A DNA stretch of 64,000 nucleotides from Spirochaetia bacterium (GTDB taxonomy: Bacteria > Spirochaetota > Spirochaetia > CADAEX01), in NCBI GenBank assembly GCA_963662795.1, contig OY759746.1, positions 1,824,001 through 1,888,000 of the forward strand, written 5' to 3'. The notes under the pieces were generated by a model. The model was not told the DNA's origin and ran no database searches. It saw nothing but the letters and a program-made list of their open reading frames with translations. The position numbers were made by a program, and so were the translations under genes. Below, one piece after another: positions 23,930 through 63,798 of the stretch. Every line of letters starts with the position of its first letter. Position 1 is the stretch's first letter.

Positions 23930-23957
23930 TCACAACTGCAACTACTAGGAGTTATAC
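23930..23957 (+). other. attI-like recombination site, crossover G|TTATAC at 23951
   Basis: First GTT junction, with no upstream attC; AACT-6bp-AGTT core; the following 20 nt pair with the 3' end of cassette 1. Confidence 0.7.
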
Positions 23958-24166
23958 GAAAAACCGCGCCAAGAGGCTACAATTTCGCCCCGGGGAAACG
24001 GGAAAAGCCAGGCGTCCTGCCTGGCTTAAGAAAGAAATAACAGAAAATGGTAATAATTTTTAAAAGTGTGAATTTTGTAGTTTTGGAATAGCTTCAGTTC
24101 TTGAATAGATTTGACTTACACAGCAATATGTGTTAAAATGTACACAAAAGGATTGAGGAGAAAAAT

Positions 24167-24367
24167 ATGGCTACAAACCTTGCAATTGATGATAAATTAT
24201 TAATACTTGCCCAGGGTATTGCTGGAATAAAGACAAAGAAGGATACAGTAAACCTTGCGCTTAAAGAGTTTATTCAGAGAAGAAAACAGGAAGAAATTAT
24301 AGATATTTTTGGCAAAATAGAGTTTGCAGAAGATTATGACTATAAACAAATGAGAAATAGAAAATGA
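24167..24367 (+). CDS. vapB: VapB-type antitoxin (cassette 1)
   Basis: MATNLAIDDKL RHH-like N-terminus; overlaps PIN toxin start. Confidence 0.8.
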   Translation: MATNLAIDDKLLILAQGIAGIKTKKDTVNLALKEFIQRRKQEEIIDIFGKIEFAEDYDYKQMRNRK

Positions 24368-24789
24368 AAATACTTGTAGATACTTCTGTCTGGTCATTGG
24401 CATTAAGGAAGAAAACACTCACAAAGGAAGAGGATAAAATTGTAAGAGAATTAAAGGAATTAATTTATGAACTTAGGGTCATGATAATGGGGCCTATAAG
24501 GCAGGAATTATTATCCGGCTTATCAGATGATGAAAAGTTTAAGATATTAAAGGAAAAATTAAAATCATTTGAAGATATAGAATTGAATCAGGAAGATTAT
24601 GAGAAAGCAGCTGAGATATCGAATAGTTGTAGAAAGAAAGGAATCCAAGGATCACATATAGATTTTTTAATATCAGCAGCAGCATTGAATAGAAATATAA
24701 GTATTTTTACAACAGATAAAGATTTTGAAAATTATAAAAAAATATTAAGTTTGAAATTGCATAAAGTAAGAGAAGAAATAAACAAGTAA
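24364..24789 (+). CDS. vapC: PIN-domain VapC toxin (cassette 1)
   Basis: LVDTSVW, QELLSG, DFLI, TTDKDF. Confidence 0.9.
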   Translation: MKILVDTSVWSLALRKKTLTKEEDKIVRELKELIYELRVMIMGPIRQELLSGLSDDEKFKILKEKLKSFEDIELNQEDYEKAAEISNSCRKKGIQGSHIDFLISAAALNRNISIFTTDKDFENYKKILSLKLHKVREEINK

Positions 24790-24867
24790 AAGGAAAAGAC
24801 CCGCTTTCGTACGTCCTGTACGAAAGCGAAGAGGGGCGAAATTAAGAAAAAGAAGGCGCGGTTCATC

Positions 24868-25050
24868 GTATAACAGCGGATGTTCGGTTTCGGCTGGCGG
24901 GGAGTAAATTATCAAGAAACCCAGCCTTCACCCAAATTGCCTGTCCTATAACCATTTTGATAATTTAAAATATTACGGAAGAGTTTAATCAATAGCTGTA
25001 TAATGCAATTGAATAATCAGGCAACTTCGATCATCCGCGGGACGTTATTT
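24868..25050 (+). repeat. attC-like site 1 (183 bp)
   Basis: GTATAAC-AGCGGATG...CATCCGCGGGAC-GTTATTT. Confidence 0.85.
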
Positions 25051-25305
25051 GCAATACCGCAGATTAGTGATTATGAATTATCTAATTTAGTTCGTGTTTG
25101 TTCAAACATTCCGTGCCCAAGAGGAGCCCGGCGTCCTGCCGGGCTTAAGAAGAATTATAAAATCTTAAACTTACAATAATAAATAGGGAAAATGCTTTTA
25201 GATATTTATTGTAAACTTTTCCAGCAATGTAATAATTATAAAATGAATAATAAAAAGATTGGATCTGGTGTTAAATATTAATAAGAATAAAGGGTAGGTA
25301 ATTTT

Positions 25306-25665
25306 ATGGATAAGTATTTTGAAAGTAAAATAAACAGTAGTATAACAGATCGAAAAAAACTTCATGAAAGATTTGTAAAAGGTTGTAAAACCTATAAAAG
25401 CTTTCTAGAGCTTGAGGAAAGAGCATTTTCTGATAGTGCTTTATCAAGAAAAGTAAAAGAATTAATGGCATTATCAATATCAATAGTAACCAAGTGTGAA
25501 CCTTGCATAGAATGGCATGTGCAACAAGCTTTACTTCAAGGAGCTACAGATGAAGAAATATATGAAACAATAGATGTTTCAATAGAAATGGGAGGAGGAC
25601 CAGCAGGAGCATATGCAAGGTATGCGCTTAATGCAATGGATTATCATAGAGCAAATAAAAGATAA
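25306..25665 (+). CDS. Carboxymuconolactone decarboxylase/AhpD-family protein (cassette 2)
   Basis: KVKELMALSIS..KCEPCIEWH..GAT.EEI. Confidence 0.85.
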   Translation: MDKYFESKINSSITDRKKLHERFVKGCKTYKSFLELEERAFSDSALSRKVKELMALSISIVTKCEPCIEWHVQQALLQGATDEEIYETIDVSIEMGGGPAGAYARYALNAMDYHRANKR

Positions 25666-25946
25666 AAAATGAAATATTGAGATAAACCATTAAAGAATTA
25701 AGCTCCACGATGAAGGAGAGACGATATATTTACAAAAAAAATAAAGCTGTAAGTAGAAAAGTAGTAAATATATGAATATAGGATGAAAATAAAAAGTAAA
25801 TTATTGACTTAAAATAGATAAGAGTGTTATTTGGTACTGCCATGTAAAAAGTATGGGGAGCGCCCCGTTTTCGCCGTCCTGGCTCAAACGGGAAGAAGGG
25901 CACGGGAGGAGGAAGGAAAAGAGGGAATAAATAATTGCGGTACTGC

Positions 25947-26138
25947 AAATAACAGCGATTATTTCGCTGCGCTCCCTGTGGTCGCTTGGGCTCCTGCCAG
26001 TTGAGCTGGCAGATCGCCATATTTTGTTTTCATAAAACCGGAACAACATGTGTTTTATGCTCTTCAAGTTTGTAAAAACTAAATAAAAATATTTTAGAGT
26101 TTAGCCACAAAACATCGAATAATCGCGAGACGTTATCC
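25947..26138 (+). repeat. attC-like site 2 (192 bp class)
   Basis: AAATAAC-AGCGATTATT...AATAATCGCGAGAC-GTTATCC. Confidence 0.88.
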
Positions 26139-26233
26139 ACAATGCCCCCACAAGATGCAATCGCCCGGACCTCCGGCCGACGGGCGAGGATATGTTGTAC
26201 TAGGTAAGATTTTATTCACTAAAAGGAGTAAAA

Positions 26234-27025
26234 ATGCTATTACCAAATATTGATGAATTAAGAAATCAAAATACGATTTGGCACTATACAAAAGTTGATT
26301 ATGCAATAAAATACATATTGTATGAACTGAAATTACGTCTTTCGCCCGTGGCAAAAAGTATTGATCCAATAGAAAATAGTGGACATGGTATTAATTATTC
26401 TAATTTCAACAAACAAGAAGAAATATCAGATTTTGCCCGTGAATTACGTAATAAATATATTAAACAGTCTCAAAATGTTAAGCAACTATCATTTTGCATG
26501 AATGAATATGCTGATAATAAAATGCATAAAATTGATAAATATGGTTTTATAAAACCTAGAATGTGGGATCAATATGGTGATCATTATAAAGGGGTTTGTT
26601 TTGGTTTTGATAAAAAAAAATTAAAAATCAATGAGGAAAAACAAGTTGCAGGAAAAGTTGTATATTACACATATGATGAATTTATTGGAATTGAGCATTT
26701 TTCAATAAATGCACAAATAACACCAGATATTAATATTTCAGAACCAGAATATATTCAGAATCTTAGTAAGAAATTTAATCAATTATTTTTTAAAAAGCAT
26801 ATTGATTATATTGGTGAAAATGAATACCGAATTATATCGTTTAGCGAAACTGATTTTGATTATATAGATATCGAAAAATCAATTAATTGTATTATAATTT
26901 CAGGTTTTGTAGAATCAAACTATGATTATAGGGTATTAAGAAAGTATGCAAAAAAATTAAACATACCACTTATTCAAATATTATGGATCGGAACAAGTAT
27001 TGATATACAAAGAATAGAAAAATAA
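26234..27025 (+). CDS. DUF2971-like protein (cassette 3)
   Basis: WHYT, LSFC, MWDQYG...GVCFGFD, ENEYR. Confidence 0.7.
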   Translation: MLLPNIDELRNQNTIWHYTKVDYAIKYILYELKLRLSPVAKSIDPIENSGHGINYSNFNKQEEISDFARELRNKYIKQSQNVKQLSFCMNEYADNKMHKIDKYGFIKPRMWDQYGDHYKGVCFGFDKKKLKINEEKQVAGKVVYYTYDEFIGIEHFSINAQITPDINISEPEYIQNLSKKFNQLFFKKHIDYIGENEYRIISFSETDFDYIDIEKSINCIIISGFVESNYDYRVLRKYAKKLNIPLIQILWIGTSIDIQRIEK

Positions 27026-27135
27026 TATTAAAAACAAAGAAATCTAATTTATGCAAGGATAATAATTGCCTGACAGTAAATAAAGTCCAGCCTTGGCTCC
27101 GCCGTGCGGCTTGGACAAGAAGTGGGGGCACTGGT

Positions 27136-27306
27136 GGATAACAGAGGATAATTCGCTGCGCTCGGAGTACCTCGCTTGGCCTGCGGCATATTTTGCTAGC
27201 ATTAAAGCAGTTCATATTCTATTTTACCCTATTTAAATATATTTCCCAAGACTATTACGTTGAAAATGGTTTTAGCAAAACATCGCTTATCCGCGGGACG
27301 TTATCC
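27136..27306 (+). repeat. attC-like site 3 (171 bp class)
   Basis: GGATAAC-AGAGGATAA...TTATCCGCGGGAC-GTTATCC. Confidence 0.88.
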
Positions 27307-27424
27307 ACAATGCCCCCACAAGATGCAATCGCCCGGACCTCCGGCCGACGGGCGAGGATATGCAGTAGGAGTAATATACAGTATAATAGTATATGTTAGA
27401 AGAACCATTCGGGCAGAGGAAGAA

Positions 27425-27982
27425 ATGAAAAGAGAACAATTTTTTATATTGATTTTGTCAATATTACTTATTTCCTGCACAAAGATGGAAAACGATGTAA
27501 TTCTATTAGTTCCATATAGTCAACAAGAAAAATTAATTAACTATTTTACTAAAGCCAGTATTAAAGTAAAAATTGATAATTCTTTGATGACAATTTCTTC
27601 TCCTACTGATAATGTATTATTAAACCTTCTTGATTTTCTATTTACCAATATATATTTGAATAAAAGTAATTTAAATAATTCAACTACCACAAGAACTCAA
27701 GATGGATCATATTATAAAAGAAAATATCTTGAAATACTTCCTAATTTAAAATACATAATAAGGGATGATTTGAGTAGTCCAAAGGCAGTATATGACCCAA
27801 CACATCCTGATGCAATTAAAGAAGGTAAAGACAAAGGATATGTATATTATCCAAATATAATTATAGATGATGAGGAAAATGATCTTATCAATAATGTATT
27901 TTTATATAATTCAATTCTTGAATACTTAAAAAGTAGAAACATACCAGTTATGTCTATAGAAATTGATCCAAATAATATATGA
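27425..27982 (+). CDS. Predicted lipoprotein with FlgC-like segments (cassette 4)
   Basis: Lipobox LLISC; NNSTTTRTQDG.YYKRK and VYDPTHPDAIK..GYVYYPNI resemble FlgC; upstream ORF extension crosses the attC and is rejected. Confidence 0.6.
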   Translation: MKREQFFILILSILLISCTKMENDVILLVPYSQQEKLINYFTKASIKVKIDNSLMTISSPTDNVLLNLLDFLFTNIYLNKSNLNNSTTTRTQDGSYYKRKYLEILPNLKYIIRDDLSSPKAVYDPTHPDAIKEGKDKGYVYYPNIIIDDEENDLINNVFLYNSILEYLKSRNIPVMSIEIDPNNI

Positions 27983-28247
27983 TGAGTATCATAAATATTT
28001 CTGAAATTGATAGAAATTAATGTTTTTTAAATACAAAAAGACTTCTAACTACTTTTACCTGATGTTTTCTTTGTTACATTTTGTACTGTCGCTTCGCTTC
28101 TGACGCACAAAATGCGCCAAGCCCTTCGGGCACGAAAATACAGATTAAGCAAATGTAAAATTCCAATTACTTAAACAAGGAAATAAGGGAAGAAGTCCGG
28201 CCTTGGCTTCCAGCCGTGCGGCCCGGACAAGAAGTGGGGGCACTGGT

Positions 28248-28439
28248 GGATAACAGCGATTATTTCGCTGCGCTCCCTGTGGTCGCTTGGGCTCCTGCCA
28301 GTTGAGCTGGCAGATCGCCATATTTTGTTTTCATAAAACCGGAAGAACATGTGTTTTATGCTTTTCAGGTTTGAAAAAACCAAATAAAAGTATTTTAGAG
28401 TTTAGCCACAAAACATCGAATAATCGCGAGACGTTATCC
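28248..28439 (+). repeat. attC-like site 4 (192 bp class)
   Basis: Near-identical to site 2. Confidence 0.88.
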
Positions 28440-28531
28440 ACAATGCCCCCACAAGAAGACACCGCCCGGACCTCCGGCCGACGGGCGAAGAGAATTGAAT
28501 ACCAATTAAACTACTTAAAAAAGGTAAATAT

Positions 28532-29434
28532 ATGAATGGATTAAATGAAAAAAGTATTTTATTCAAACATTTAGAGGACAATTCTTTACATACGATAAAT
28601 GAATTATATCATTATACAACAATAGAAAATTTCTACAAAATTATTGAAACTAAAACATTTTATATTTTTAATTCTTATCAAATGAATGATTATAAAGAAA
28701 ACTATGTATTGATCGAAAAACTCAAGGAATATTTAAAAAATAGAAATGATATTCCAGAGGATTATCTGAATAAACTTGATGAAACCATAAAGATAAAGTT
28801 TAGATTGAATACACCATATGTGTTTTGTTTAACTGAATTAAATGATTCGTTATCACAATGGAGAGCTTATGGAAATGATGGAAAAGGAATTTGTTTTAAA
28901 ATAGACAGTAAAAAGTTACAAATGAAATATCGTCTGCCTTTTACAGGCGCAGAAAAAGATAATAATTTATCATTACACAATGTAATTTATAATAATGAAG
29001 AGATTAAAAATATCATTGAGAATATTATCAATCAAAGTATTGATTTTGCAAAAACTCGAGATGAAAATATTAGAAATATAGTCTTTGCTGAAACAGCATG
29101 TGCTTTAATGGTAAGATTTAACCCAGTAGTAAAATTAAATGAATTTAAAGAAGAGAAAGAATGGAGAATTATTTACAATCCGGTCTGTATAAAAACCGAC
29201 GGCATTCCATTTAATACTTTAGATAATAATAAAGATATTGGATTTTTAATAACAAATAATAATTTGAGATCTTATTTTAAAATATCATTTACAAGTGATG
29301 AATTTAAAGATATTATTTCTGCTATTTATATTGGTCCTAAAAGTAGAGTAGACGATTATGAAATGCGAATATTATTAGATATTAATGCATTAAAGAATAC
29401 AGAAATATATCGTTCAAATATTCCATATAGATAA
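28532..29434 (+). CDS. DUF2971-like protein (cassette 5)
   Basis: LYHYT, MNDYKE, DSLSQWRAYG..GKGIC, EEKEWR, IYIGP. Confidence 0.8.
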   Translation: MNGLNEKSILFKHLEDNSLHTINELYHYTTIENFYKIIETKTFYIFNSYQMNDYKENYVLIEKLKEYLKNRNDIPEDYLNKLDETIKIKFRLNTPYVFCLTELNDSLSQWRAYGNDGKGICFKIDSKKLQMKYRLPFTGAEKDNNLSLHNVIYNNEEIKNIIENIINQSIDFAKTRDENIRNIVFAETACALMVRFNPVVKLNEFKEEKEWRIIYNPVCIKTDGIPFNTLDNNKDIGFLITNNNLRSYFKISFTSDEFKDIISAIYIGPKSRVDDYEMRILLDINALKNTEIYRSNIPYR

Positions 29435-29526
29435 TTATTTGTATAGGTAGAATAATTAACTGACTGTTTATGAAGTCCGGCCTTGGCTTCCAGCCGTGCG
29501 GCCGGACAAGAAGTGGGGGCACTGGT

Positions 29527-29698
29527 GGATAACAGCGGTTCAAGCGCATCGCTCGGATTACCTCGCTTGGGCTTCGCCAAACATCGCAGGGTTTATGCTA
29601 CAACTTTTTGAAATAACGAGTTAGGAGTAATAAATAATACAGCTTTATGTTAAATAGTCTTGGTCTGCGATGCTTCGCTTAACCGCAGGACGTTATCC
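29527..29698 (+). repeat. attC-like site 5 (172 bp)
   Basis: GGATAAC-AGCGGTT...TTAACCGCAGGAC-GTTATCC. Confidence 0.85.
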
Positions 29699-29836
29699 AC
29701 AATGCCCCCACAAGATGCGATCGCCCGGACCTCCGGCCGACGGGCGAAAATTAGTAAACGCAGTTTTATAATTGGAAATGGTAAGCACTTTTTCCCCAGT
29801 CATGGAAAGGAAAAGTACCCCACCTAGTGAAAAAAA

Positions 29837-30568
29837 TTAGCTCTCCTTTTTATTTGAAATTCTATATGAATCTCCCGCGAGGGAGAAAACATGTGCATGA
29901 TGCAGCAGTCTGTCCAGCAGCGCTGTTGTCATTACTTCGTCCCCAAGCATTTCCGCCCAGGAATCAAAACTTTTGTTAGATGTTATGATAATTGATGTGC
30001 GTTCATAAAGTTCACTCACCAGCGAAAAGAATAAATTGGCCTCTTTTCGGTCAATAGGTGTGTAGCCTATTTCATCGATGATCAAGACATCGGACTTCAT
30101 GATTCGATTGAGCCTGAATGTACTCGAGCGCTGAACATCCATTGTTTTCAGTAGCTTCACCAGTGATGTGATTCGCTCAAAGCAGACCTTATACCCTTTC
30201 TGAATTGCCTCATAACCAAGTGCAATAGAAAGATGAGTTTTCCCTATTCCCGGAGGTCCAAAGAAAAGAAGATTTTCCTGTTTATCTATCCAAGTGAAAT
30301 CGAGAAGATTTTTAAGCTGTAATTTGTTTATACCTTCCAGCCTATTTATATTAAAATCTTCAAGAAGTTTTATTACCGGAAAATGAGAGCCTGCAAGGTT
30401 GCGTCTCAGCCTGCGTTCCATCCGGTAGGAGATCTCTTTTTCCAGAAGAGTTTTAAGGAACTCAAGATGTGAAATTTCACTTTCAACATTCACTTCATTT
30501 AATGCTTTTGATATCCCCTGAAGTTTTAAGTTTTCCAGCACTCCGGTACAATAATCGAGCGTTTTCAT
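29837..30568 (-). CDS. istB: IS21 helper ATPase IstB
   Basis: GPPGIGKTHL, IIDEIGY, TSNK, LDRLLHH, GDSYR. Confidence 0.95.
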   Translation of the reverse strand: MKTLDYCTGVLENLKLQGISKALNEVNVESEISHLEFLKTLLEKEISYRMERRLRRNLAGSHFPVIKLLEDFNINRLEGINKLQLKNLLDFTWIDKQENLLFFGPPGIGKTHLSIALGYEAIQKGYKVCFERITSLVKLLKTMDVQRSSTFRLNRIMKSDVLIIDEIGYTPIDRKEANLFFSLVSELYERTSIIITSNKSFDSWAEMLGDEVMTTALLDRLLHHAHVFSLAGDSYRISNKKES

Positions 30569-32124
30569 AAAGCTCCTCCGATTATGCTGACCAGCGAACT
30601 ATAATAACTAAGCTTCCTTTGAACAACTTTTGGATTTCTTAAATCTGCTTTAACAGCCTGAATTCCGGTTATTAGTTTAGGGAGAATATTATCATGTAAA
30701 TCTTCAGTAACACCTTTTACATATGCATACGCTTCTTCAAGATTCATGGCGCTGCATCCCCCTGTTTCTTCACACACGATAAGGGCCTTTGAAAGTAGCT
30801 CAACATCATAGCCGCCGGATAGAAATTTACTTAAACTTGAATGCTGTTCACGAAAATAACGGGTGTAACGCCGATAGTTTTTCTGAACAAATTCCTCCCA
30901 ACCGGGAGCTGTAACTTTTTCAAGTAACTCATCTCGAAGCTGTGTTTGTTTAACAGAATTATCTTTAAAATGATTCTTTTTCGATATTATCTGTCCAGGA
31001 AGTACTGAGCGTGCGTGATGAGCAATTTCTCTTCCAGCCAATTCATCATAAATGAATAATTCATTCTCTGATCTATAAATCCAGACGGTTTTACGCCGGT
31101 ATGAAATAGGCACTGAATATTTACAGGAATCTACACTTATGAAACTTTTTAGATCTACTTTACGATCTTCCCGCTCAAGAATGGAATCTCTTTTAAACAT
31201 TGAAGCCCGCAAGGGCTTGAGTTTCTCTTGTTCCTTTTTAAGCAGGTTTGCAGGAATTATTCCGGTTGCTTGAGATATTTTCCCGTTTGCTGTTCTCACT
31301 ATCCATGAAGAGAGCTTTGATTGAACATCTTCGAAATCATCAAAGGTTCTCGCTGAAAAAAAACTTGTCTTTACGAACTTAACGAGATTTTCTACCTTTC
31401 CCTTGGATTCCGGATCTGCTTTTCGACAGACATATAGCTCAAACTGCATTTCATCTTGAAATTGGCTAAATGATTTTGTGAGAATAATATCCCCGCTGTT
31501 TTCACTGACAATCAGGGTCCGGTCCTGATCAATTACTATCTGATGTGGTATGCCACCTATGTACTCAAAACAATCAAGAAGATGTAAAATTACATCCAAT
31601 GTTGTAAACGGACGTTGCTGTACTGCAACATATCGGTATCTGCTTGCAGAGAGCACTGATGCAAAGATATAGACGGTCTCTCCAGTGTTTATCTTTAGCT
31701 GGCCAAAATCAACCTGCAATTGTTTTCCAAACGGCAGTTCATCTACCGGAGTATAGGACCTATATAGCGGTGATGTAAGAATTCCACCTGTTCTTACCAG
31801 ATATGAAATATAATTTCTCAAAGTACGGGGTGTTCCCGGAAGATTCTCCTCCCCGTATTTTTCCTCCAGCAAATCATAGACTGAAGACGAATATACCTTG
31901 CTTTCATTCAGCCGGTAAATCTCAATGACTTCGTCTCTGAAGGGTTCGAAGACTTGTTCTTTTTTATGAGCGATTTTTTGATACTCAACATATTTTTCAG
32001 CGCTCATCTTGTAATATTTTGAGACAGTTTTCCGAGAAACTTCAAGCTTTTTGCTTATTTGACGGATTCCCATACCTGCCTTCTTGTGTTTTCTGATAGT
32101 TTGAAATAAGTTCATTGTAATCAT
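30565..32124 (-). CDS. istA: IS21 transposase IstA
   Basis: N-terminal HTH, QVDFG, IVIDQD, ESKGKVEN DDE core. Confidence 0.92.
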   Translation of the reverse strand: MITMNLFQTIRKHKKAGMGIRQISKKLEVSRKTVSKYYKMSAEKYVEYQKIAHKKEQVFEPFRDEVIEIYRLNESKVYSSSVYDLLEEKYGEENLPGTPRTLRNYISYLVRTGGILTSPLYRSYTPVDELPFGKQLQVDFGQLKINTGETVYIFASVLSASRYRYVAVQQRPFTTLDVILHLLDCFEYIGGIPHQIVIDQDRTLIVSENSGDIILTKSFSQFQDEMQFELYVCRKADPESKGKVENLVKFVKTSFFSARTFDDFEDVQSKLSSWIVRTANGKISQATGIIPANLLKKEQEKLKPLRASMFKRDSILEREDRKVDLKSFISVDSCKYSVPISYRRKTVWIYRSENELFIYDELAGREIAHHARSVLPGQIISKKNHFKDNSVKQTQLRDELLEKVTAPGWEEFVQKNYRRYTRYFREQHSSLSKFLSGGYDVELLSKALIVCEETGGCSAMNLEEAYAYVKGVTEDLHDNILPKLITGIQAVKADLRNPKVVQRKLSYYSSLVSIIGGAL

Positions 32125-32276
32125 TTGAGTCCATCCTGGTTGATTGTTTCATAGCTACAACCTTATAGGATGGACTCTTTCTTTTCACTAGGTGGGGTAC
32201 TTTTCCTTTCCACCTCTGGGGTAATTTAGCTTACCATTTCCATTTATAATTTATTTTACATATTAGGAGGTAATAT

Positions 32277-33092
32277 ATGTCCTATTTAATGCATATTACA
32301 TTTGACAACACTCGCCGCTTAAAAAAAAATATTTACTATTTTAGCTATAAAAATGTAATCTTTAAATTAATACAGAACAATCCTCGAATACATTCAGACG
32401 TTTTATTAACAATTGTTTCAAAAAGTGGAAATATTGAAGAAGAAAATGCATATTCAGCAGCATCTGAATTTTTAAGTGCATTAAGTTGGGAAATTAATTC
32501 GCAAATTATCATGAGCTATAGTGGTGGATATGGCTGGGATGAAAAAAAAAGTCTTAGATATGCAAAACAAGGTATTTATATTCCACCAGTATTTCCTGTT
32601 GGAAGAGGTAGAATGTTGGGGTATGATTTGAATGAAATACCAGCAATTATTAATTCTGAACAAATTACTGCTTTAACTCTTTATAGAGAAGCACATAGTT
32701 CAAATAATCCTTATCTTTCATTTTTATTTTATTGGCAAATATTGGATGTTTATGGGACTAAAGCTGCAACATGGACAAATAACATATTTAAAAAAAATGT
32801 TTCTGAACTTCAAATAAAAGAATATTTAAGTCAAATTAATCTTCAAGATAAACCTCTTGGAGATTATTTAGAAAAAGAATGCAGAGATGCAATTGCGCAT
32901 ATAAAAAGAGCACCAAATAAAACAAGAATTGATCTAGATTCAGCTAAGGATAATCAGCGAATATTAATAGCTGTAAAAATTGTTCAAAAATTAGCTGAGG
33001 TATATATAAAAAAACATCTAAATCTTAACAAATCATGTTTTTTAGTAAAGAAAAACAATTGGAGCTATCCTGAATATGTTTGTATAAATTAA
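32277..33092 (+). CDS. HEPN-like (MauJ-like) protein (cassette 6)
   Basis: LYREA..SNNPYLSFLFYWQIL and RDAIAH Rx4H motif. Confidence 0.6.
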   Translation: MSYLMHITFDNTRRLKKNIYYFSYKNVIFKLIQNNPRIHSDVLLTIVSKSGNIEEENAYSAASEFLSALSWEINSQIIMSYSGGYGWDEKKSLRYAKQGIYIPPVFPVGRGRMLGYDLNEIPAIINSEQITALTLYREAHSSNNPYLSFLFYWQILDVYGTKAATWTNNIFKKNVSELQIKEYLSQINLQDKPLGDYLEKECRDAIAHIKRAPNKTRIDLDSAKDNQRILIAVKIVQKLAEVYIKKHLNLNKSCFLVKKNNWSYPEYVCIN

Positions 33093-39557: not shown

Positions 39558-39575
39558 TACAGCAAGAGGTAAAGA

Positions 39576-56331: not shown

Positions 56332-56473
56332 CAAAAAAAATGCAGTTGTCGCCGTCTATTGTCACGATTCTGGCAGAGACGTTCCGCGCTGATCGCGCTC
56401 CACTCCAGAATCGCGCCAATTCCTTCAGCCTACGGCTTCAGGATCGAGGGCGCAACTGATTTTGTCGTTATAC
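56326..56473 (+). repeat. Foreign-type attC nested inside cassette 20
   Basis: ACATAAC overlaps stop codon; AAAATGCAGTTG...CAACTGATTTT arms; ends GTTATAC. Confidence 0.6.
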
Positions 56474-56547
56474 TGGAATATTTAGAAAAGAGGAAAAGTC
56501 CGGCCTTGGCGGTGCCGTGCGGCCTGGACAAGAAGGGGTCGTACTGC

Positions 56548-56719
56548 ATATAACAGAGGATAATTCGCTTCGCTCGGATTACCTCGCTTGGCCTTCGGCA
56601 TATTTTGCTATCATCAAACTTGAACAGTAAAAGTTGAACCCTTTTCAAGATTAACAAAGTAGACATAAATGTTTTAGAGTTTTAACCGCAAAACATCGCT
56701 TATCCTCGGGACGTTATGC
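56548..56719 (+). repeat. attC-like site 20 (172 bp)
   Basis: Similar to sites 12/13. Confidence 0.88.
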
Positions 56720-56840
56720 TCAATACCAGCCGCAAGAGGAAATCGCCCGGACCTCCGGCCAACGGGCGAGAGAGAAGAAGAAACAATAAGTATAGATTAA
56801 ACTGTAAAAGATAAGAAATGCTTATGGAAAGTGAAAGAAC

Positions 56841-56869
56841 TTGACAATAATATGTAATAACAATATAAT
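56841..56869 (+). promoter_or_regulatory. Sigma70 consensus promoter of TA cassette 21
   Basis: TTGACA-17bp-TATAAT, identical to 39529. Confidence 0.8.
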
Positions 56870-56887
56870 TACAGCAAGAGGTAAAGA

Positions 56888-57136
56888 ATGATAGTTTCTG
56901 TTGTTCCAATTGGAAATTCGAAAGGAATACGTCTTCCAAAAGCATTATTAAATCAACTAAAAATATCAGATAAACTGGATTTAGAAGTAGAAGATCAGAA
57001 AATAATACTTAAACCTGTATCTGATAATCCAAGAGCAGGATGGAATTTGGCTTTTAAAGATATGCATGAAAAAAATGAAGATCAATTATTGATAAATGAA
57101 AGTATTGATTCTAAGGATTTCAAATGGGAATGGTAA
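56888..57136 (+). CDS. mazE: AbrB/MazE-type antitoxin (cassette 21; near-identical to 39576)
   Basis: IGNSKGIRLPK; one residue differs from the cassette 11 copy. Confidence 0.85.
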   Translation: MIVSVVPIGNSKGIRLPKALLNQLKISDKLDLEVEDQKIILKPVSDNPRAGWNLAFKDMHEKNEDQLLINESIDSKDFKWEW

Positions 57137-57453
57137 TAAATCAGTATGAAGTCTATCTGGTTGAGCTTGATCCAACAAAGGGACATGAAATACAAAAAAC
57201 GAGACCTTGTTTAATTATTTCCCCTGATGAAATGAATCATAATATAAGTACTGTCATTATTGCTCCAATGACAACAAAATCACATAATTATCCAACACGG
57301 ATAGAATTAAAGTTTTTAGGAAAAAAGGGATGGATAGTATTAGACCAAATAAGAACGATAGACAAACAAAGATTAATAAAAAAAATTGGTAAAATTGAAA
57401 TTAATGAAGTAAGAAAAGTAAAAGAAACTATTAAAGAAATGTTGGTTGATTAA
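57124..57453 (+). CDS. mazF: PemK/MazF toxin (cassette 21; paralogue of 39812)
   Basis: LDPTKGHEIQKTRP, DQIRTIDK. Confidence 0.9.
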   Translation: MGMVINQYEVYLVELDPTKGHEIQKTRPCLIISPDEMNHNISTVIIAPMTTKSHNYPTRIELKFLGKKGWIVLDQIRTIDKQRLIKKIGKIEINEVRKVKETIKEMLVD

Positions 57454-57691
57454 TAAGTCAAATTACATATAGAAAAGAGATTAAATATTTTAAAAATAAA
57501 GAAAAGCAGTCGTACAACTTGGAGAAGAAGTAAGGCAATTGTGGATAATTGCGATTAGTTCACAGCATTCCCTGTGGTCGCTTAGATTTAGCTAAACATC
57601 ATAATTAAAAATATTAAGCAAATTTAAAAATACCCCCATGATTTGCAATTTTTCAATTCTCAACAAACGCTAAGCGGTAATCTGCCATATT

Positions 57692-58575
57692 TTATGAGGC
57701 AAGTGGTAATTCTAATTGTTTCATGACGCTTATTTTGGGAATATCAACTTCGATTGAATCAATTGGACTTTTAATATTCAAAAGATCAAACCTTTGTGCA
57801 TGCAAGTATATCATTGTAGAGTTTATTGAAGAGTGCCCTAAGAGTCGCATAATATAAAATATATTTACATTATGCTCTAATAGATGTGTTGCAAAACTAT
57901 GCCTTAATGTGTGAACATGTGCAGATTTATTTATATTTGTTTTACTAAAATATTTCTGAAAAACCTCCTGAACACGCCTTATTTTCATAGGTATAGCTTT
58001 ATTTCGAAGATTAAAAAATAAATAATTAATAGGAACATAATTCTTTATATATTCTTTTAATAATTTAATTGTATTGTCACCAATTATCGCATATCTTTCT
58101 TTTCTATTTTTTGATTCTGACACAAAAATAAGTTTTCTGTTAAAATCTATATCAGATATTTTAATGTTTAAGCCTTCTGATATACGAAGCCCTGAAGAAT
58201 ATAGTAATGTGAACAAAGTTTTATATCTAAAATCATAACAGTTGTCTAAAAACAGTTTTACTTCTTCTTTTGTCAGAATAGTTGGAACTTTAAAACTTTT
58301 TTTGGTCTTGGGATGGAAATAATATATTCTCTCATATTGTGAAGAGAAAAGAAAAATAAAAGAGCATGATAATAACAATGAATTATGGAGGGACTATTAC
58401 CTGAATCATATAAATAAAAGAAAAATCGTCTTAATTCCTGTTTTGTTATATCTGTGGGTTTTTTATTGAAAAATAAAGCAAGTTTATTAACATAAAAGAC
58501 ATATTGATTTATAGTTCTTTGGCTATATCCTTGTAAAGTCATTTCTTCAATCATGTGTTCACGTAAATATCCCAT
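57692..58575 (-). pseudogene. Second tyrosine recombinase, frameshifted at an A7 run (58297-58303)
   Basis: SAM-like N-terminus (LREHMIEEMTLQGYSQRT) in one frame, catalytic domain (YSSGLRISE, HTLRHSFATH, LLGH, TMIYLH) in the -1 frame. Confidence 0.8.
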
Positions 58576-58675
58576 AATTATCTCCTATAAAAAATAAGTA
58601 TTTCAGTATGGAAAATATTTGAAAATGTTTAAAGCTATTATTTTATACTTTTAGAATTATATAATAAAAAATGTA

Positions 58676-58800
58676 AAGCAAGATAGATAATAACCGCTTA
58701 AAACAGCACCTCAAGCTGGGGAAGTTAAAATTAAAAAAGATACTGTAAATATATTGCTTTAGAAGAATTTATTAAATGAAGGGACATAGAAAATATTTTT
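58676..58800 (+). pseudogene. vapB-like antitoxin remnant
   Basis: Reads IDNNRLKQHLKLGEVKIKKDTVN then shifts to ALEEFIK*, resembling KTKKDTVNLALKEFIQ of 24167. Confidence 0.5.
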
Positions 58801-58963
58801 GTGATCAAAAAAATAAGAGATTCCAGTAGATGGTTTTAGAAAGAAAAAATATTTTTAACAACATCTGAAATAACAGAAATTGATTATGTCATTTTAAAGA
58901 ATAAGAATTGAGTCCGGCCTTGGCGGTGCCGTGCGGCCTGGACAAGAAGCGGCTGGTACTGGA

Positions 58964-59134
58964 GCATAACAGAGGATAATTCGCTGCGCTCGGAGTACCT
59001 CGCTTGGCCTGCGGCATATTTTGCTATCATCAAAACAGTTCAAATTATGTTTATACTCTATTTAAATATATTTCTTAAGACTATTCGTTGAAAAAGGTTT
59101 TAGCAAAACATCGCTTATCCTCGGGACGTTATAA
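58964..59134 (+). repeat. attC-like site 21 (171 bp)
   Basis: Similar to sites 3/9. Confidence 0.88.
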
Positions 59135-59362
59135 GCAATGTTCCCGCAAGAGAAAATCGCCCGGACCTCCGGCCGACGGGCGAGGAATAATGATAAAAAT
59201 TCTATATTATGAATATCTTCTGCATATATGAAGGTTTTTAATGAAAGTAAATTGTCAATACCAGAGAATACAGAATATAAAAACCAAATATTTATTGTAG
59301 ATTATAAAAATGATTTGATATATCTGCTTGACAGATATATCTGTATGGCATATATTATTTGT

Positions 59363-59644
59363 ATGATTCGATCTTTTGGGGATGAGGAGACAGAAAAGAT
59401 TTTTAGGCAAGAAAAATCAAAGAAATTGCCTCCAGAGATACAAAAGAGAGCTTTAATAAAATTATTGCTCCTTGAAGCTGCAACAACAGAAGATGATTTA
59501 AAGGTTCCACCATCGAATCGTTTTGAACATCTAAAGGGTAAATTAAAAGAATATTGTTCAGTGAGAATCAATAATCAGTGGCGTGTACAATTCAAAATGA
59601 AAAATGGGGAATTATATGATGTTTCAATTGTGGATTATCACTGA
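59363..59644 (+). CDS. higB: HigB (RelE/ParE-family) toxin (cassette 22)
   Basis: MIRSFGDEETEKIF, PPSNRFEHLKG, SVRINNQWR, DYH; TTGACA and ACAGATATATCTGT palindrome just upstream. Confidence 0.88.
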   Translation: MIRSFGDEETEKIFRQEKSKKLPPEIQKRALIKLLLLEAATTEDDLKVPPSNRFEHLKGKLKEYCSVRINNQWRVQFKMKNGELYDVSIVDYH

Positions 59645-59657
59645 GAGGAAGGATTAA

Positions 59658-59960
59658 ATGAGAAAAGATACTATCGAAACACCAAAAATTGGAGATATTC
59701 TAAAAGAAGAATTTCTCGAACCATTAGATATTTCTGCATACCGGCTTGCAAAAGAAATAAATGTTTCAACAAGTTCTATACTGGATATACTACATAATAA
59801 ACGGAAGATATCTGTGGAAATGGCATTAAGATTAGCTAAGTATTTTGGTACATCATCAAAATTTTGGTTAAATTTGCAAAACGAATTAGATCTTAGAGAA
59901 ACAAAACACAAAATAGAAAAGGAATTAGAAAAAATCACATTACATGCACATATTGCATAA
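59658..59960 (+). CDS. higA: HigA antitoxin (cassette 22)
   Basis: GDILKEEFLEPL, AYRLAK, MALRLAKYFGTS..FWLNLQ. Confidence 0.92.
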   Translation: MRKDTIETPKIGDILKEEFLEPLDISAYRLAKEINVSTSSILDILHNKRKISVEMALRLAKYFGTSSKFWLNLQNELDLRETKHKIEKELEKITLHAHIA

Positions 59961-60072
59961 ATCAAATACACCTTATAAAAATAGCTTTATCTGATAGGTT
60001 TGTAATTACTTTATAATAAAGTCCGGCCTTGGCTTCCAGCCGTACGGCCTGGACAAGAAGCGGGAACACTGC

Positions 60073-60243
60073 TTATAACAGAGGATACTGCGCTACGCTC
60101 GGAGGACCTCGCTTGGCCTGCGGCATATTTTGCATTTTGATAATCAACACAATTAAGAATATCTTGTTTTCAGTATTGATAACCACAAAATATTAAATCT
60201 TTTAGTATTTTGCAAAACATCGCGTATCCTCAGGACGTTATAA
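60073..60243 (+). repeat. attC-like site 22 (171 bp)
   Basis: TTATAAC-AGAGGATAC...GTATCCTCAGGAC-GTTATAA. Confidence 0.88.
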
Positions 60244-60438
60244 GCAATGTTCCCGCAAGAGGAAATCGCCCGGACCTCCGGCCGACGGGCGAAGATATAT
60301 GAATCAGAATATCTCTTTGAGAAAGACTCAGAAGTTAATTCAATAACAAAGGTAAAAATATTTACATAAGTATACAGTTTTTAAAAATAATTCAGAAAAA
60401 GCTTGTTAAATACGATATATTATCGTATATTTCATCTT

Positions 60439-60648
60439 ATGAAAGTAACTGCAATAATCGCTGATGAACTAATAAATGAAGTTAAACACTATTCAAATAG
60501 TACCACAACAACAGAGGCCATAACTATAGCCTTGAGAGATTGGCTTGATATTCATCATATTAAAGAATTAAATGCGCAAATATCAAAAACCCCTATTACT
60601 TTTAATTATTCTGCAAAAAAGATAAGAGAAGTAAATAGAAAATCATGA
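60439..60648 (+). CDS. VapB-like antitoxin (cassette 23)
   Basis: MKVTAIIADELI RHH-like; overlaps PIN gene; ATACGATA-TAT-TATCGTAT palindrome upstream. Confidence 0.7.
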   Translation: MKVTAIIADELINEVKHYSNSTTTTEAITIALRDWLDIHHIKELNAQISKTPITFNYSAKKIREVNRKS

Positions 60649-61019
60649 TAATTCTTGATACTTCTGTTTGGATAGAGTTTTTAAAAGCAAATACGGAATA
60701 TTACAATCAAATTGCACAATTATTAGAAAAAAAGGAAGTACTTGCGGTAGAATGTGTATTTGGAGAATTATTTCAGGGAATAAAGAGTGAAAGAGAAAAA
60801 TCTTTAATATCAGAATACTGGAAATACCTTCCTAAAATTGACAGTTCAGGATTATTTATAGAGGCAGGAATATATTCGAATAAAAACAAATTATTGGATA
60901 AAGGAGTGGGTCTTATTGATTCATTAATTTTGGTACATGCATTGAAATTAAAAATATCAATATGGACTCTCGATAAAAAATTACTAAAAATAATACCAAA
61001 AGAACTTATTTATAAATAA
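60645..61019 (+). CDS. vapC: PIN-domain VapC toxin (cassette 23)
   Basis: ILDTSVWIEF, GELFQG, IDSLI, WTLDKKL. Confidence 0.88.
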   Translation: MIILDTSVWIEFLKANTEYYNQIAQLLEKKEVLAVECVFGELFQGIKSEREKSLISEYWKYLPKIDSSGLFIEAGIYSNKNKLLDKGVGLIDSLILVHALKLKISIWTLDKKLLKIIPKELIYK

Positions 61020-61108
61020 TTAATTACAAATAAAAATATAACAAAAAAAACAATATTAGTCCGGCCTTGGCTCCGCCGTACGGCCAGGACAAGAAGCGGG
61101 AACACTGC

Positions 61109-61295
61109 TTATAACAGCGGATGACCAGTTCCGGCTGGTGGAAAGTAAAATATAAGGGAAAGACCAGCCTTCACCCAAATTGCCTATTTTGGAAATCCTT
61201 TTGAATAATATAAAATATTAGGGAAGAGTTTAAACAGTTGTTGTACAATTCAATTGAATAATCCGGCAACTTCGGTCATCCGCGGGACGTTAGCA
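61109..61295 (+). repeat. attC-like site 23 (187 bp)
   Basis: Similar to site 1; TTATAAC-AGCGGATGACC...GGTCATCCGCGGGAC-GTTAGCA. Confidence 0.85.
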
Positions 61296-61414
61296 GCAAT
61301 ACGTCCCCAAGAAGACAATCGCCCGGACCTCCGGCCAACGGGCGAGGATAGGTGGTAATAATATTTTTTCAAAAACAGTTGAAATTAAAAATATGAGAAA
61401 TAACTGATAAAATT

Positions 61415-62128
61415 ATGAAAATATTAACATGGAATTGTAATATGGCATTTCGAAGAAAATATGAAATCTTAAAAGATTTTCAACCGGATATTGCTGTAAT
61501 ACAAGAATGTGAAAACAGCAGTGTCTTAGAAAAGTTTAAAAATGAAATAAATTATTCAGATATATTATGGTATGGTCATAATAAAAATAAAGGCTTATGT
61601 ATCCTGACTTTTGATAAATACTACATAAAAGATATAATTCAAAAAGAAGATTTCAAGTATGTCCTTCCTGTTAAAATTGGTAATGATATATTTTCGATGA
61701 AATTAATAGCTGTATGGACACAATTTGTAAATAAAAATATTTATGAAAGCTATGTTGTTCAGGCTACAAGAGCATTTCAATATTACAGAAAAGCATTGGA
61801 GCAGGAAGATATTTTTATAATAGGAGATTTTAACAGTAATTCGATCTGGGATAATGAATCTCCAAAAGAATACACACATTCACAAATGGTAGATTTGCTG
61901 AAACAAGAAAAAATTGAAAGTATTTATCATTTTTTAAAAAAAGAAAAACACGGAAAAGAAACAATTCCTACATTATTTTTTCAGAAGAATATAAATAAAA
62001 CATATCATATCGATTATTGTTTTTGTAAAATATCGAGAATGAATAAAATTAGAGATTTCAGAATTGGAGAATATGACAAATATATCACCAAAAGTGATCA
62101 TATGCCTCTGTTTATTGAAATAGAATAG
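61415..62128 (+). CDS. Endonuclease/exonuclease/phosphatase (EEP) family protein (cassette 24)
   Basis: LTWNC, IQEC, GDFNS, HIDY, SDHMPL. Confidence 0.88.
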   Translation: MKILTWNCNMAFRRKYEILKDFQPDIAVIQECENSSVLEKFKNEINYSDILWYGHNKNKGLCILTFDKYYIKDIIQKEDFKYVLPVKIGNDIFSMKLIAVWTQFVNKNIYESYVVQATRAFQYYRKALEQEDIFIIGDFNSNSIWDNESPKEYTHSQMVDLLKQEKIESIYHFLKKEKHGKETIPTLFFQKNINKTYHIDYCFCKISRMNKIRDFRIGEYDKYITKSDHMPLFIEIE

Positions 62129-62182
62129 AAATATTGACAATTCTCACGAAGTACAATATATTGTACAATAAGGAGAAAGGAA

Positions 62183-62440
62183 ATGGATGCTGTAACATAT
62201 TCGGATTTAAGACAAAATCTGAAATCTTATTTAGACAGAGTTTACCATGATCATGATCCGATGATTATAACAAGAAAAAATAATGAAAATCTTGTTTTAC
62301 TTTCAATTGCAGAATATAACAGTCTGATTGAAACAAGTTACTTATTAAGCAATGAGGCTAATGCAATGCACCTTAAAAAATCAATAGAGCAGCTTAATGC
62401 CGGAAAGGTTGAAGAAAAGGAATTACTGGCAGATGAATAA
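62183..62440 (+). CDS. yefM: Phd/YefM antitoxin (cassette 24)
   Basis: YSDLRQNLK, IITRK, ETSYLLS; TTGACA and GTACAATATATTGTAC palindrome upstream. Confidence 0.9.
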   Translation: MDAVTYSDLRQNLKSYLDRVYHDHDPMIITRKNNENLVLLSIAEYNSLIETSYLLSNEANAMHLKKSIEQLNAGKVEEKELLADE

Positions 62441-62693
62441 ACTATTCACAGATGAGGCATGGAAAGACTATTTATATTGGTTTGAAAATGATAAGAAGCA
62501 ATTAAAAAAGATTAATGATCTTATAAAAGAGATTGAAAGGTCTCCATTTTCTGGAATAGGCAAGCCGGAATCATTAAAATTTAATCTAAAAGGATTTTGG
62601 TCAAGAAGAATAGATCATGAACATAGAATAGTGTATCAGGTAGAAGGATCTCAGCTTAGAATAATATCTTTAAGATATCATTACGAAAAATAA
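62433..62693 (+). CDS. yoeB: Txe/YoeB toxin (cassette 24)
   Basis: AWKDYLYW, GIGKPE, WSRRIDHEHR, RYHY. Confidence 0.92.
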   Translation: MNKLFTDEAWKDYLYWFENDKKQLKKINDLIKEIERSPFSGIGKPESLKFNLKGFWSRRIDHEHRIVYQVEGSQLRIISLRYHYEK

Positions 62694-62771
62694 TAAAGCA
62701 AATAATTAAAAAAAGGAAGAAGTCCGGCCTTGGCGTTGCCGTGCGGCCTGGACAAGAAGGGGACGTACTGC

Positions 62772-62942
62772 TGCTAACAGAGGATAATTCGCTACGCTCG
62801 GAGTACCTCGCTTGGCCTACGGCACACATCGTAGGTTTGATCTGCAATTTTTAAAAACAATAAGTTTTGGATAAAAAATATTGTAACTTTGAAATACTAG
62901 TTCTTTGGCTACGATGCGTCGCTTATCCTCAAGACGTTAGCA
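62772..62942 (+). repeat. attC-like site 24 (171 bp)
   Basis: TGCTAAC...CCTCAAGAC-GTTAGCA. Confidence 0.88.
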
Positions 62943-63047
62943 GCAATGCCCCCGCCAGGAGGAGAGCTGCGTGCCGTCCTGGCACGCAAAGAAAAAAATA
63001 AGTGTTTGATATCTATTGAAAGTGTGAACATGTAAAAATCTTACTTT

Positions 63048-63300
63048 TTGAAAAAAGGTTTAAATTCAGTATTTCATAAATCCAAAATAATTGTAGAAAT
63101 TGAGGAAGAACGGGTTAAAATAGTTATAAAGCAAAAGAACAAGGCTAATTTAGAAAAGATGCTTAAGAACATAGATATTAATATTCTTCATGGCGAAATA
63201 GAAACAGAAAGCCCAGAGGGGAAAGAAATATGGTAAAGAAAGACTATGGTACAGAAAGAAAGGAAGGTTGTATCCATTAGAATTGAAGAAATAAAATAAG
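63048..63300 (+). pseudogene. Decayed mazEF pair (cassette 25)
   Basis: LHGEIETESPEGKEIW and ATGGTAAAGAAAGACTAT match the mazE end/mazF start at 53620-53700; toxin frame broken. Confidence 0.7.
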
Positions 63301-63488
63301 AAAATTGATGGAGTAATATTGTCAGAACAGTTTAAAATCTTTAATTAGAAAAAGAGTAAAACTTAGTTTATAGAAAAACCAAAAAGAAGAAGAAATAGAT
63401 AAAAAGTGTATTGATATGTGAGTAGAAATCCCTGAATAAGAAATCAATCTGCCGTCCATGGCAGCTTGATTGAGGCGGGGGACACTGC

Positions 63489-63642
63489 AGCTAACAGCGA
63501 ATGGCCGGTTTCGACTGTTTCTAAGGAAACAGCCTCCACCCAAATTGCCGAAATAAATCATGGTAAGAATAATGTTATAGAGTATAAACTTTTAGAGTTA
63601 AAAACACCATCGGCAACTTCGGTCATTCGCGGGACGTTATCC
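63489..63642 (+). repeat. attC-like site 25 (154 bp)
   Basis: Same family as sites 17/18. Confidence 0.88.
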
Positions 63643-63798
63643 ACAATATCATCGCAAGAGAAAATCGCCCGGACCTCCGGCCAACGTGCGAAGAAAATAA
63701 AATCTGCTGTATAATATATTTTATACATACCATATATAGTTTTCTAGTTATTTAATATATTAAATGCGCAGAAATATTATCATGTGGTGAGGTGAAAA

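Follow-up and report, generated by a model that had tools for sequence, protein, structure and literature searches.

Long own-end complementarity of cassettes in a large integron-like array next to an IntI/Xer-like recombinase without the IntI insertion

We have analyzed a stretch of 64,000 nucleotides (nt) from the genome of a Spirochaetia bacterium (assembly GCA_963662795.1, contig OY759746.1, positions 1824001–1888000, hereinafter the window), and read the cassette array that begins in it onward past the window. The array follows a gene of an IntI/Xer-like tyrosine recombinase and consists of units that start with GTT and approximately 18 variable bases and end with approximately 18 bases and AAC; the segment from AAC to the next GTT is denoted X. 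In nearly all cassettes the two ends are complementary to each other, forming a potential helix of 20–21 base pairs (bp) that has no counterpart at most junctions of the array. We consider it probable that these variable ends, initially annotated as a cassette “barcode,” form the outer portion of an R arm, unusually long here, in an attC-type hairpin that is split by the G|TT crossover; the arrangement may favor integration of excised cassettes. Positions below are those of the window, unless referred to the genome.

The array begins at genome position 1,847,951 and extends at least as far as 2,180,725, where a cassette start is disrupted by an insertion sequence. It comprises about 193 cassettes in about 333 kb (8.5% of the 3.93-Mb genome), and its GC content is 31%, compared to 41–43% in the flanks. 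The series begins at 23951 on the plus strand; the units are co-directional with the recombinase gene, all 193 starts are on one strand, and cassette lengths vary from 483 to 5864 nt. Hence the locus has the general organization expected of an integron, a co-oriented array of cassettes including toxin–antitoxin pairs. X-like junctions are confined to this single array, which contains 189 of 206 matches to the junction pattern, and the remaining matches look random.

In each of the 25 complete cassettes of the window, the start matches the end of the cassette itself (scores 15–19 out of 21). The 13 variants listed in the initial annotation are recovered as 13 distinct 19-nt start barcodes in the window, and the start and end strings quoted there are present. 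That annotation also contained a blind prediction of the end of cassette 26, which lies beyond the window, and this end, at genome position 1891016, indeed reads GCGATGATACTGGTGGATAAC. The word “barcode” itself is appropriate only in part: each cassette start does pair with its own end, but the barcodes are not unique labels, as the same classes are common to unrelated cassettes, and the commonest start barcode occurs 39 times in the array. In total, the array has 41 different start barcodes, whose changes are mirrored at the opposite end, and 92 start/end combinations.

Over the full annotation, the own-end score is at least 13 in 187 of 193 cassettes, between 11 and 13 in two, and below 11 in four. 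Ten junctions of the final table had been found via the barcode and were left out of a test on 172 cassettes, in which junctions were defined from the inter-cassette X flanks alone and the arms were scored afterwards. In this set, the score of at least 13 is reached with the own end in 166 cassettes, with the start of the next cassette in 48, and in 9.6% of random start/end pairs. When only neighbors with unlike barcodes are considered (n = 128), the own end reaches this score in 122 cases, and the neighbor, in four. A first, cruder count yielded own scores of at least 14 in 161 of 183 cassettes, with the own score falling below that of the next cassette in nine; the failures were for the most part due to junctions that had been missed. 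Of the four cassettes whose ends do not match, two contain a 1.3-kb multi-copy element, which suggests secondary rearrangement. This element, probably an insertion sequence, is found in either orientation inside cassettes 34, 123, 134, 140, 161, 178, and 181.

The helix consists of 9–10 bp, a conserved central mismatch, and again 9–10 bp, the median length of both perfect runs being 9. The first run (9 or 10 bp) is formed by GTTAT, or GTTAG and GTTCT, followed by four to five free positions, and the second run comprises 9–10 free positions. At the last position of the central element (position 11), A of the start is opposite C of the end in 170 of 189 cassettes, and the element sometimes contains an additional A·A mismatch or a 1-nt bulge. 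Pairing is cut off abruptly at AAGA in the start and at AAGAA in the end. Beyond this point no own-end complementarity is observed in 181 of 189 cassettes, with scores of 6.75 for own pairs and 6.24 for non-own ones, and the other eight, mostly of the cassette 1 type, carry a second helix. In the bottom strand the A·C mismatch becomes a T·G wobble, and therefore this strand is predicted to fold more stably in 177 of 188 cassettes. Most cassettes also share conserved inner modules, AAGAG with a GC-rich hairpin after the start arm (e.g., 23971–24030) and a hairpin with AAGAA ahead of the end arm, both folding separately from the helix. At most junctions of the array GTTAT/ATAAC is the sole pairing possible, and the helix is completed only when the ends of one cassette meet, that is, in the excised circle or upon own-end pairing in single-stranded DNA. 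The extended complementarity noted in the initial annotation is thus confirmed and belongs to the cassette's own ends; by geometry, the proposed stem could be formed only by a circularized cassette or by a panhandle of the whole cassette.

Canonical attC sites contain RYYYAAC and GTTRRRY core sites with the crossover at G|TT. As a control, we used two arrays adjacent to canonical intI genes, both from one genus of the same phylum and comprising 11 and 14 cassettes, respectively. The perfect own-end run starting at GTT is on average 7.0 bp in the former and 7.6 bp in the latter (maximum 9), compared to 5.6 and 5.9 bp against the array partner; in the control sites AAC and GTT are separated by about 50 nt, and in a few of them by about 130 nt. 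Thus the initial claim that the complementarity exceeds that of ordinary integrons holds: with 20–21 bp against 7–8 bp in the two arrays beside canonical IntI, the helix is approximately three times longer, and it is a real departure from the 7-bp core-site relation, as the latter is defined in the available part of PMC3053210.

The same architecture is observed in other genomes. In a Spirochaetia metagenome-assembled genome (L010), whose recombinase is 54% identical to the one in the window, five cassettes downstream of the gene have own-end pairs of 16–19 nt and X of about 150 nt, with own scores of 14 and neighbor scores of 4–8.5. Three further Spirochaetia genomes, with recombinases 39–45% identical, have GTT…AAC pairs of 19–24 nt downstream of the gene. 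Moreover, we counted pairs with at most two mismatches in 16 nt in 24 related loci with both flanks available, mostly from Bacteroidota and with recombinases 37–47% identical, and found 39 pairs downstream of the recombinase gene versus eight upstream of it, at least some of the latter being due to a misplaced split point. Position 11 is mismatched in 37 of these 39 pairs, with A of the start against G of the end in 37, and position 16 is mismatched in 32, so that the helix in the related loci would be about 15 bp long. X in these loci is approximately 116–125 nt, and the loop adjoining AAC and GTT has the same 1-nt/5-nt asymmetry. The combination of a fixed position, length class and specific mismatch with free sequence in two phyla seems hard to explain without a pairing constraint.

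The X elements of the array vary from 69 to 181 nt, being mostly 140, 157–159, or 178 nt long. Their first 8–12 bases pair with the last bases ahead of a 5-nt tail (GGGAC, GAGAC, or AGGAC), and judging by this pairing X is a predicted hairpin of the attC kind, AAC–L''–loop–L'–GTT. The order of an imperfect-palindrome site, R''(..AAC)–L''–loop–L'–R'(GTT..), is present, with pairing L arms at 183 junctions, and the L arms covary between X types. Cassette 1 begins at GTT directly beyond the attI side, with no X ahead of it. The own start considerably changes the predicted stability of the junction hairpin. In 142 cassettes with unlike neighbors, folding energies are –39.0 (top strand) and –43.0 (bottom strand) kcal/mol with the own start, compared to –26.9 and –29.0 kcal/mol with the neighbor's start, that is, the own start is predicted to stabilize the hairpin by 12–14 kcal/mol. 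For cassette 17, the predicted fold of the circle has –56/–59 kcal/mol, and that of the array, –40/–42 kcal/mol.

Duplicated cassettes residing in different contexts (49 pairs) indicate which parts move together. The barcode is shared in 48 pairs, the type of the downstream X in 19, and the type of the upstream X in four, the latter being about the chance level. In 27 close pairs, identity on the left ends 3–20 nt to the left of GTT, which is the limit of visibility imposed by the conserved X tail; on the right, it ends just past the next GTT in 13 pairs and 2–5 nt past AAC in ten. The former class agrees with cassettes that extend from TT to the following G, as they do in integrons, although the crossover at G|TT is thereby placed only indirectly. 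In the latter class, X is exchangeable as a block. Such exchange would be accounted for by unequal homologous recombination between cassettes with the same barcode, within the arm and the conserved module (about 50 nt) that they share; alternatively, a second site-specific crossover, at AA|C, may be the source of X exchange. Mutual information between the barcode and the downstream X is 1.68, compared to 1.565 ± 0.055 for shuffled data (this value being reached in 37 of 2000 shuffles), and comparison with shuffles reveals no association of the barcode with the upstream X. With the linkage that weak, X does not define the barcode.

Cassettes with the same barcode, though carrying unrelated genes, tend to cluster: they are adjacent in 46 pairs, compared to 15.5 ± 3.5 expected, and none of 5000 shuffles produced as many. 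Among the listed duplicate pairs, only cassettes 102 and 103 are adjacent. The interior of cassette 18 (51004–52620) is covered, with no differences, by a contig from a sequencing run with another organism label, in line with cassettes possibly being shared as units. In four sequencing runs, whose assembled contigs break at the repeated modules, the joins are ambiguous across repeats, and neither circles nor deletions could be demonstrated from them; stretches left uncovered in the runs with the other organism label were disregarded.

The recombinase has Pfam domains Phage_integrase and Phage_int_SAM_4 and scores below the cut-offs of IntI, XerA, XerC, and XerD. With the IntI model TIGR02249 it yields 200.1 bits in two stretches (cut-off 265), compared to 335–508 bits for IntI proteins of other Spirochaetota; with XerA (NF040815), 214.5 (cut-off 220); with XerC, 175.4 (cut-off 335); and with XerD, 173.2 (cut-off 330). 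When aligned in two blocks to VchIntIA (2a3v), its residues 235–258 (24 residues) face residues 173–238 (66 residues) of the chain. The multiple alignment agrees with this: the six IntI rows taken from other Spirochaetota genomes all contain a block of approximately 45 residues that is absent from the window recombinase, and likewise from its array-associated relatives. Hence, as far as its sequence goes, the protein is an IntI/Xer-like recombinase without the IntI-specific insertion, a feature that had escaped the initial annotation and that changes the possible purpose of the longer stem.

In a quick tree, from which one row (L104, wrong reading frame) was left out, the IntI rows form a single clade (support 100), and the window protein groups with two Spirochaetia homologs. 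The place of the latter clade relative to IntI is left unsettled by this tree, the support for IntI with a Bacteroidota clade being 88, that is, below the starred level. At the N-terminus, the recombinase has an extra stretch of about 65–70 amino acids (aa). In a Pfam search with this domain (22782–22990), the only match is HARP, a domain known from forked-DNA-binding enzymes, and it is sub-threshold (E 0.15), a hint at most; BLASTP of the N-terminus against that of Treponema-type IntI yields E 0.17, and MAFFT alignment gives a hint of likeness between the two. IntI above the curated cut-off is found in 29 of 301 sampled genomes of the phylum. The genome considered here also contains a second intI, of the canonical type (genome positions 412371–413302), whose match to the IntI model (175.8 + 195.7 bits) extends over the insertion region. 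This gene is broken by a frameshift and three stop codons, is located between insertion-sequence genes and a ribosomal RNA operon, and has no adjoining array.

These observations can be combined in the following model. In the top strand of an excised circle, the site would comprise the 3' arm of about 20 nt ending with AAC, one nucleotide (A), the L'' arm, a loop of about 50–150 nt, the L' arm, five unpaired nucleotides (GGGAC or similar), and GTT with the 5' arm of about 20 nt. Since the G|TT crossover would fall in the middle of this site and not near its edge, each integrated cassette would carry both halves of the helix, one at each end. Xer-type enzymes generally need a duplex arm beside the cleavage site. 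The adjacent recombinase, which probably uses the folded site, may, like these enzymes and having no insertion, require such an arm of at least 15 bp. In attI, which would be double-stranded, the arm at the cleavage point would always be duplex, whatever the first cassette; in the folded site, it would be duplex solely if the two arms match. An enzyme with this requirement would therefore impose selection for own-end complementarity regardless of sequence. The excised cassette would be a complete and stable substrate for integration at attI, and a junction between unlike cassettes, a poor substrate for excision; gain would then be favored over loss, cassettes would accumulate, and this may explain the very large size of the array. 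GC skew suggests that replication starts at about 1.38 Mb and terminates at about 3.42 Mb, placing the bottom strand of the array on the leading-strand template, as described for the largest chromosomal integrons in the available part of PMC5371416. Formation of the helix in vivo, the strand that is used, and the bias toward integration are what we infer from these sequence features, whereas the anatomy, the own-end pairing with its conservation across genomes, and the absence of the insertion are observed.

Several considerations weigh against this model. The requirement for a long duplex arm is drawn by analogy with Xer-type enzymes in general, and the folding energies are predictions rather than measurements. 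The existence of circles and formation of the helix are postulated from assembled contigs, which break at repeats. If junctions between unlike cassettes were inert, rearrangement would be hardly possible, and yet 49 duplicate pairs are found in different contexts; moreover, X is only loosely tied to the preceding cassette, which a crossover restricted to G|TT does not predict. The recombinase is linked to the sites by adjacency, though this adjacency recurs in several genomes, and the broken canonical intI could once have served the array.

The same pairing could instead serve the precision of excision rather than integration, if the start of a cassette paired with its own end in single-stranded DNA. 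In such a panhandle of the whole cassette, the upstream and downstream hairpins would meet at a three-way junction with the G|TT cleavage points side by side, so that exactly one cassette would leave. One strand of the helix does run on into L' of the X that precedes the cassette, and the other, into L'' of the X that follows it, single cassettes are duplicated in many contexts (the same 49 pairs), and no sequence data, including the pairing itself, contradict this scheme. It would, however, require 0.5–5.9 kb to be single-stranded at once, and with the bottom strand on the leading-strand template, as suggested by GC skew, long single-stranded stretches should be rare (available part of PMC5371416). 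We regard this scheme as rather unlikely. Still less probable, in our opinion, is that the complementarity is a by-product of cassette making, the arms having come from one palindromic scaffold, or having been copied one from the other, and persisting by descent with no present function. The two-sided scaffold shared by unrelated genes, with conserved 5' and 3' modules flanking it, the repeated use of the commonest barcode, and the excess of adjacent same-barcode pairs would all be natural for such an origin, but arms under neutral descent would drift apart, whereas pairing is retained in 41 variants and in distant phyla, with the length and the position 11 mismatch fixed and the helix ending sharply at one place in nearly all cassettes. 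The related idea from the initial annotation, that the ends record how cassettes are built, finds no direct support in our data.

One could also regard the arms as inverted binding sites recognized as double-stranded DNA, similar to transposon ends or to Xer sites of pdif modules, with position 11 distinguishing left from right. The terminal inverted repeats open with conserved GTTAT, position 11 differs systematically between starts and ends, and the recombinase has no insertion of the kind that IntI uses on folded DNA, as this idea would have it. Nevertheless, we find it very hard to credit: a protein-binding site is expected to be conserved, but 14–15 of 20 positions vary freely provided that the opposite end matches; cassettes would be turned around by exchange at sites in inverted orientation, and yet every one of the 193 starts is on the same strand; the AAC–GTT interval is predicted to form a hairpin whose L arms covary; and no target duplication is seen.

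One may also speculate that Spirochaetota and Bacteroidota harbor a separate class of integrons, whose recombinases, having no insertion, would recognize a long duplex R arm mismatched at position 11 in place of the features read by IntI, the arm defining a compatibility class. This proposal we consider doubtful. If it were true, a competent site would arise only from the own ends of a cassette or at a junction of the same class, so that the barcode would decide which cassettes leave and where incoming ones enter, and runs of same-barcode cassettes with unrelated genes would be accounted for.

Compared to known systems, the array is integron-like in site logic, orientation variants and cassette content, falls outside the strict definition because of the missing insertion and the IntI score, and differs in the long own-end helix. 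It shares with canonical integrons the co-oriented cassettes adjoining a tyrosine recombinase gene, toxin–antitoxin cassettes, the imperfect palindromes bounded by AAC and GTT (available parts of PMC3053210 and PMC5371416), and pairing of the first bases past G|TT with the own inverse core, which is 7–8 bp long in the two control arrays. Here, however, the own-end helix is longer and contains an internal mismatch, AAC and GTT are mostly 140–180 nt apart, compared to the published 57–141 bp for whole sites, the loop adjoining the R arm is asymmetric (1 nt vs. 5 nt), and the recombinase lacks the insertion and is below the cut-off.

The “inverted” integrons of Treponema come from the same phylum and have the same co-orientation of intI and cassettes (available part of PMC4889954). 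Their cassettes open with GTTAG…, after which there is a short GC hairpin, and their IntI also has an N-terminal extension (435–439 aa). On the other hand, this IntI contains the insertion and scores 400–508 bits, own-end pairing stops at 7–9 bp, AAC and GTT are about 50 nt apart (a few about 130), and the window recombinase is not placed inside their IntI clade in the quick tree. The array resembles large sedentary chromosomal integrons, such as the Vibrio superintegron, in having cassettes numbering in the hundreds and site families that are homogeneous within a host, a parallel drawn with no Vibrio sequence compared; the available part of PMC5371416 gives up to 203 cassettes for the largest arrays. 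It differs from sedentary integrons in occupying 8.5% of the genome rather than up to 3% (available part of PMC2674596), and in the two-sided scaffold and long own-end helix, not described for them.

Modules of the pdif type are bounded by inverted Xer sites. Xer recombinases act on a single dif-type site with two 11-bp arms and a 6–8-bp spacer. The similarity to Xer/dif systems lies in a tyrosine recombinase of simple build, with no IntI insertion, and in arms ending with ATAA/TTAT at the cleavage point, and the differences, in scores below the XerA, XerC and XerD cut-offs, in the 69–181-nt hairpin between AAC and GTT, and in arms that vary but pair mutually; a 28-bp dif-type site was not seen, though no dif search was made. 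Transposons and miniature inverted-repeat transposable elements have terminal repeats of one conserved family and target-site duplications, while here the repeats occur in 41 variants, each unit is bordered on either side by a conserved hairpin element, and no target duplication is seen.

The textbook integron site is a hairpin with the AAC and GTT triplets as its only fixed sequence, read by an insertion-bearing integrase. What is new here is a related enzyme without the insertion, next to sites with a long additional helix that could form from own ends only. The integron literature searched, including passages of PMC3607928, PMC8138268, PMC4889954, PMC3053210, PMC8618304, and PMC5371416 (supplements aside), contains no description of an own-end helix beyond the core sites. 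If the helix is functional, the difference between the excised (complete) and the integrated (incomplete) site would offer a simple physical basis for directionality and for the growth of arrays to a very large size; the 41 variants, together with other phyla, would constitute a natural experiment on DNA recognition by structure rather than by sequence; and cassette boundaries could be marked exactly in genomes where integrase-based tools see no integron. The two-sided conserved scaffold bears on the open question of cassette origin. All this should be of interest to the fields of integrons and structure-specific recombination.

The coordinates of the features in the window are given in Table 1.

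Table 1. Recombinase gene, attI-side region and cassettes of the window, with the downstream X elements and own-end scores (all on the plus strand).
Feature	Position	Strand	Downstream X	Own score	Details
Tyrosine recombinase, 339 aa	22782–23801	+			IntI/Xer-like
attI-side region, recombinase stop to first GTT	23802–23950	+			no X element inside
Cassette 1, VapB/PIN pair	23951–24874	+	24875–25043	15.0	arms 23951–23970, 24855–24874; Pfam
Cassette 2, CMD family	25044–25953	+	25954–26131	16.5	arms at each end; Pfam
Cassette 3, DUF2971	26132–27142	+	27143–27299	15.5	
Cassette 4	27300–28254	+	28255–28432	15.5	folded
Cassette 5, DUF2971	28433–29533	+	29534–29691	15.5	
Cassette 6, with minus-strand Mu-like transposase	29692–33341	+	33342–33498	15.5	Pfam
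Cassette 7	33499–34962	+	34963–35118	15.5	
Cassette 8	35119–36339	+	36340–36497	15.5	
Cassette 9	36498–37902	+	37903–38059	15.0	
Cassette 10	38060–39331	+	39332–39400	15.0	short X (69 nt); junction found via barcode, not junction pattern
Cassette 11, MazE/PemK pair	39401–40234	+	40235–40411	17.5	Pfam
Cassette 12	40412–41583	+	41584–41741	17.5	
Cassette 13	41742–43055	+	43056–43214	19.0	folded
Cassette 14	43215–44398	+	44399–44576	17.5	
Cassette 15, STAND NTPase-like	44577–46159	+	46160–46337	15.0	Pfam
Cassette 16	46338–47762	+	47763–47940	15.0	
Cassette 17	47941–50830	+	50831–50970	17.0	folded
Cassette 18	50971–52652	+	52653–52792	17.0	
Cassette 19	52793–54083	+	54084–54240	15.5	
Cassette 20	54241–56554	+	56555–56712	17.0	
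Cassette 21	56713–58970	+	58971–59127	17.5	
Cassette 22	59128–60079	+	60080–60236	17.0	
Cassette 23	60237–61115	+	61116–61288	17.0	
Cassette 24	61289–62778	+	62779–62935	17.0	
Cassette 25	62936–63495	+	63496–63635	15.5	
Cassette 26, start only	63636–64000	+		15.5	end outside window, genome 1891016 (window 67016)

Within the cassettes, the VapB/PIN pair occupies 24167–24789, the MazE/PemK pair, 39576–40141, and the STAND NTPase-like gene, 44669–46066; the Mu-like transposase inside cassette 6 is encoded on the minus strand at 30565–32124, and DUF2971 proteins are also among the contents. A search of the window against Rfam at gathering scores produced no match. In the region 39300–48100, scanned for promoters and terminators, we observe 63 promoter-like sites versus 46.3 ± 6.9 in shuffles and four terminator-like sites versus 4.1, with no regular site in X.

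The Bacteroidota homologs of the recombinase (L026, L044, L066, L076, and others) are apparently about 580 aa long, with gene starts taken as predicted, and their N-terminal extension of about 300 aa resembles three repeats of the approximately 65-aa N-terminal domain of the window protein. One more candidate, a homolog with 39% identity on a Chryseobacterium plasmid (NZ_CP041688.1, L119), was rejected, as its locus has no own-end pairs and the repeat is of another build. At positions 9900–18990 of the locus, there are four repeats of about 175 nt, each comprising a 40-nt GTT..AAC palindrome and an AAC..GTT hairpin; co-oriented genes follow the homolog, and a group II intron reverse transcriptase is encoded on the opposite strand.

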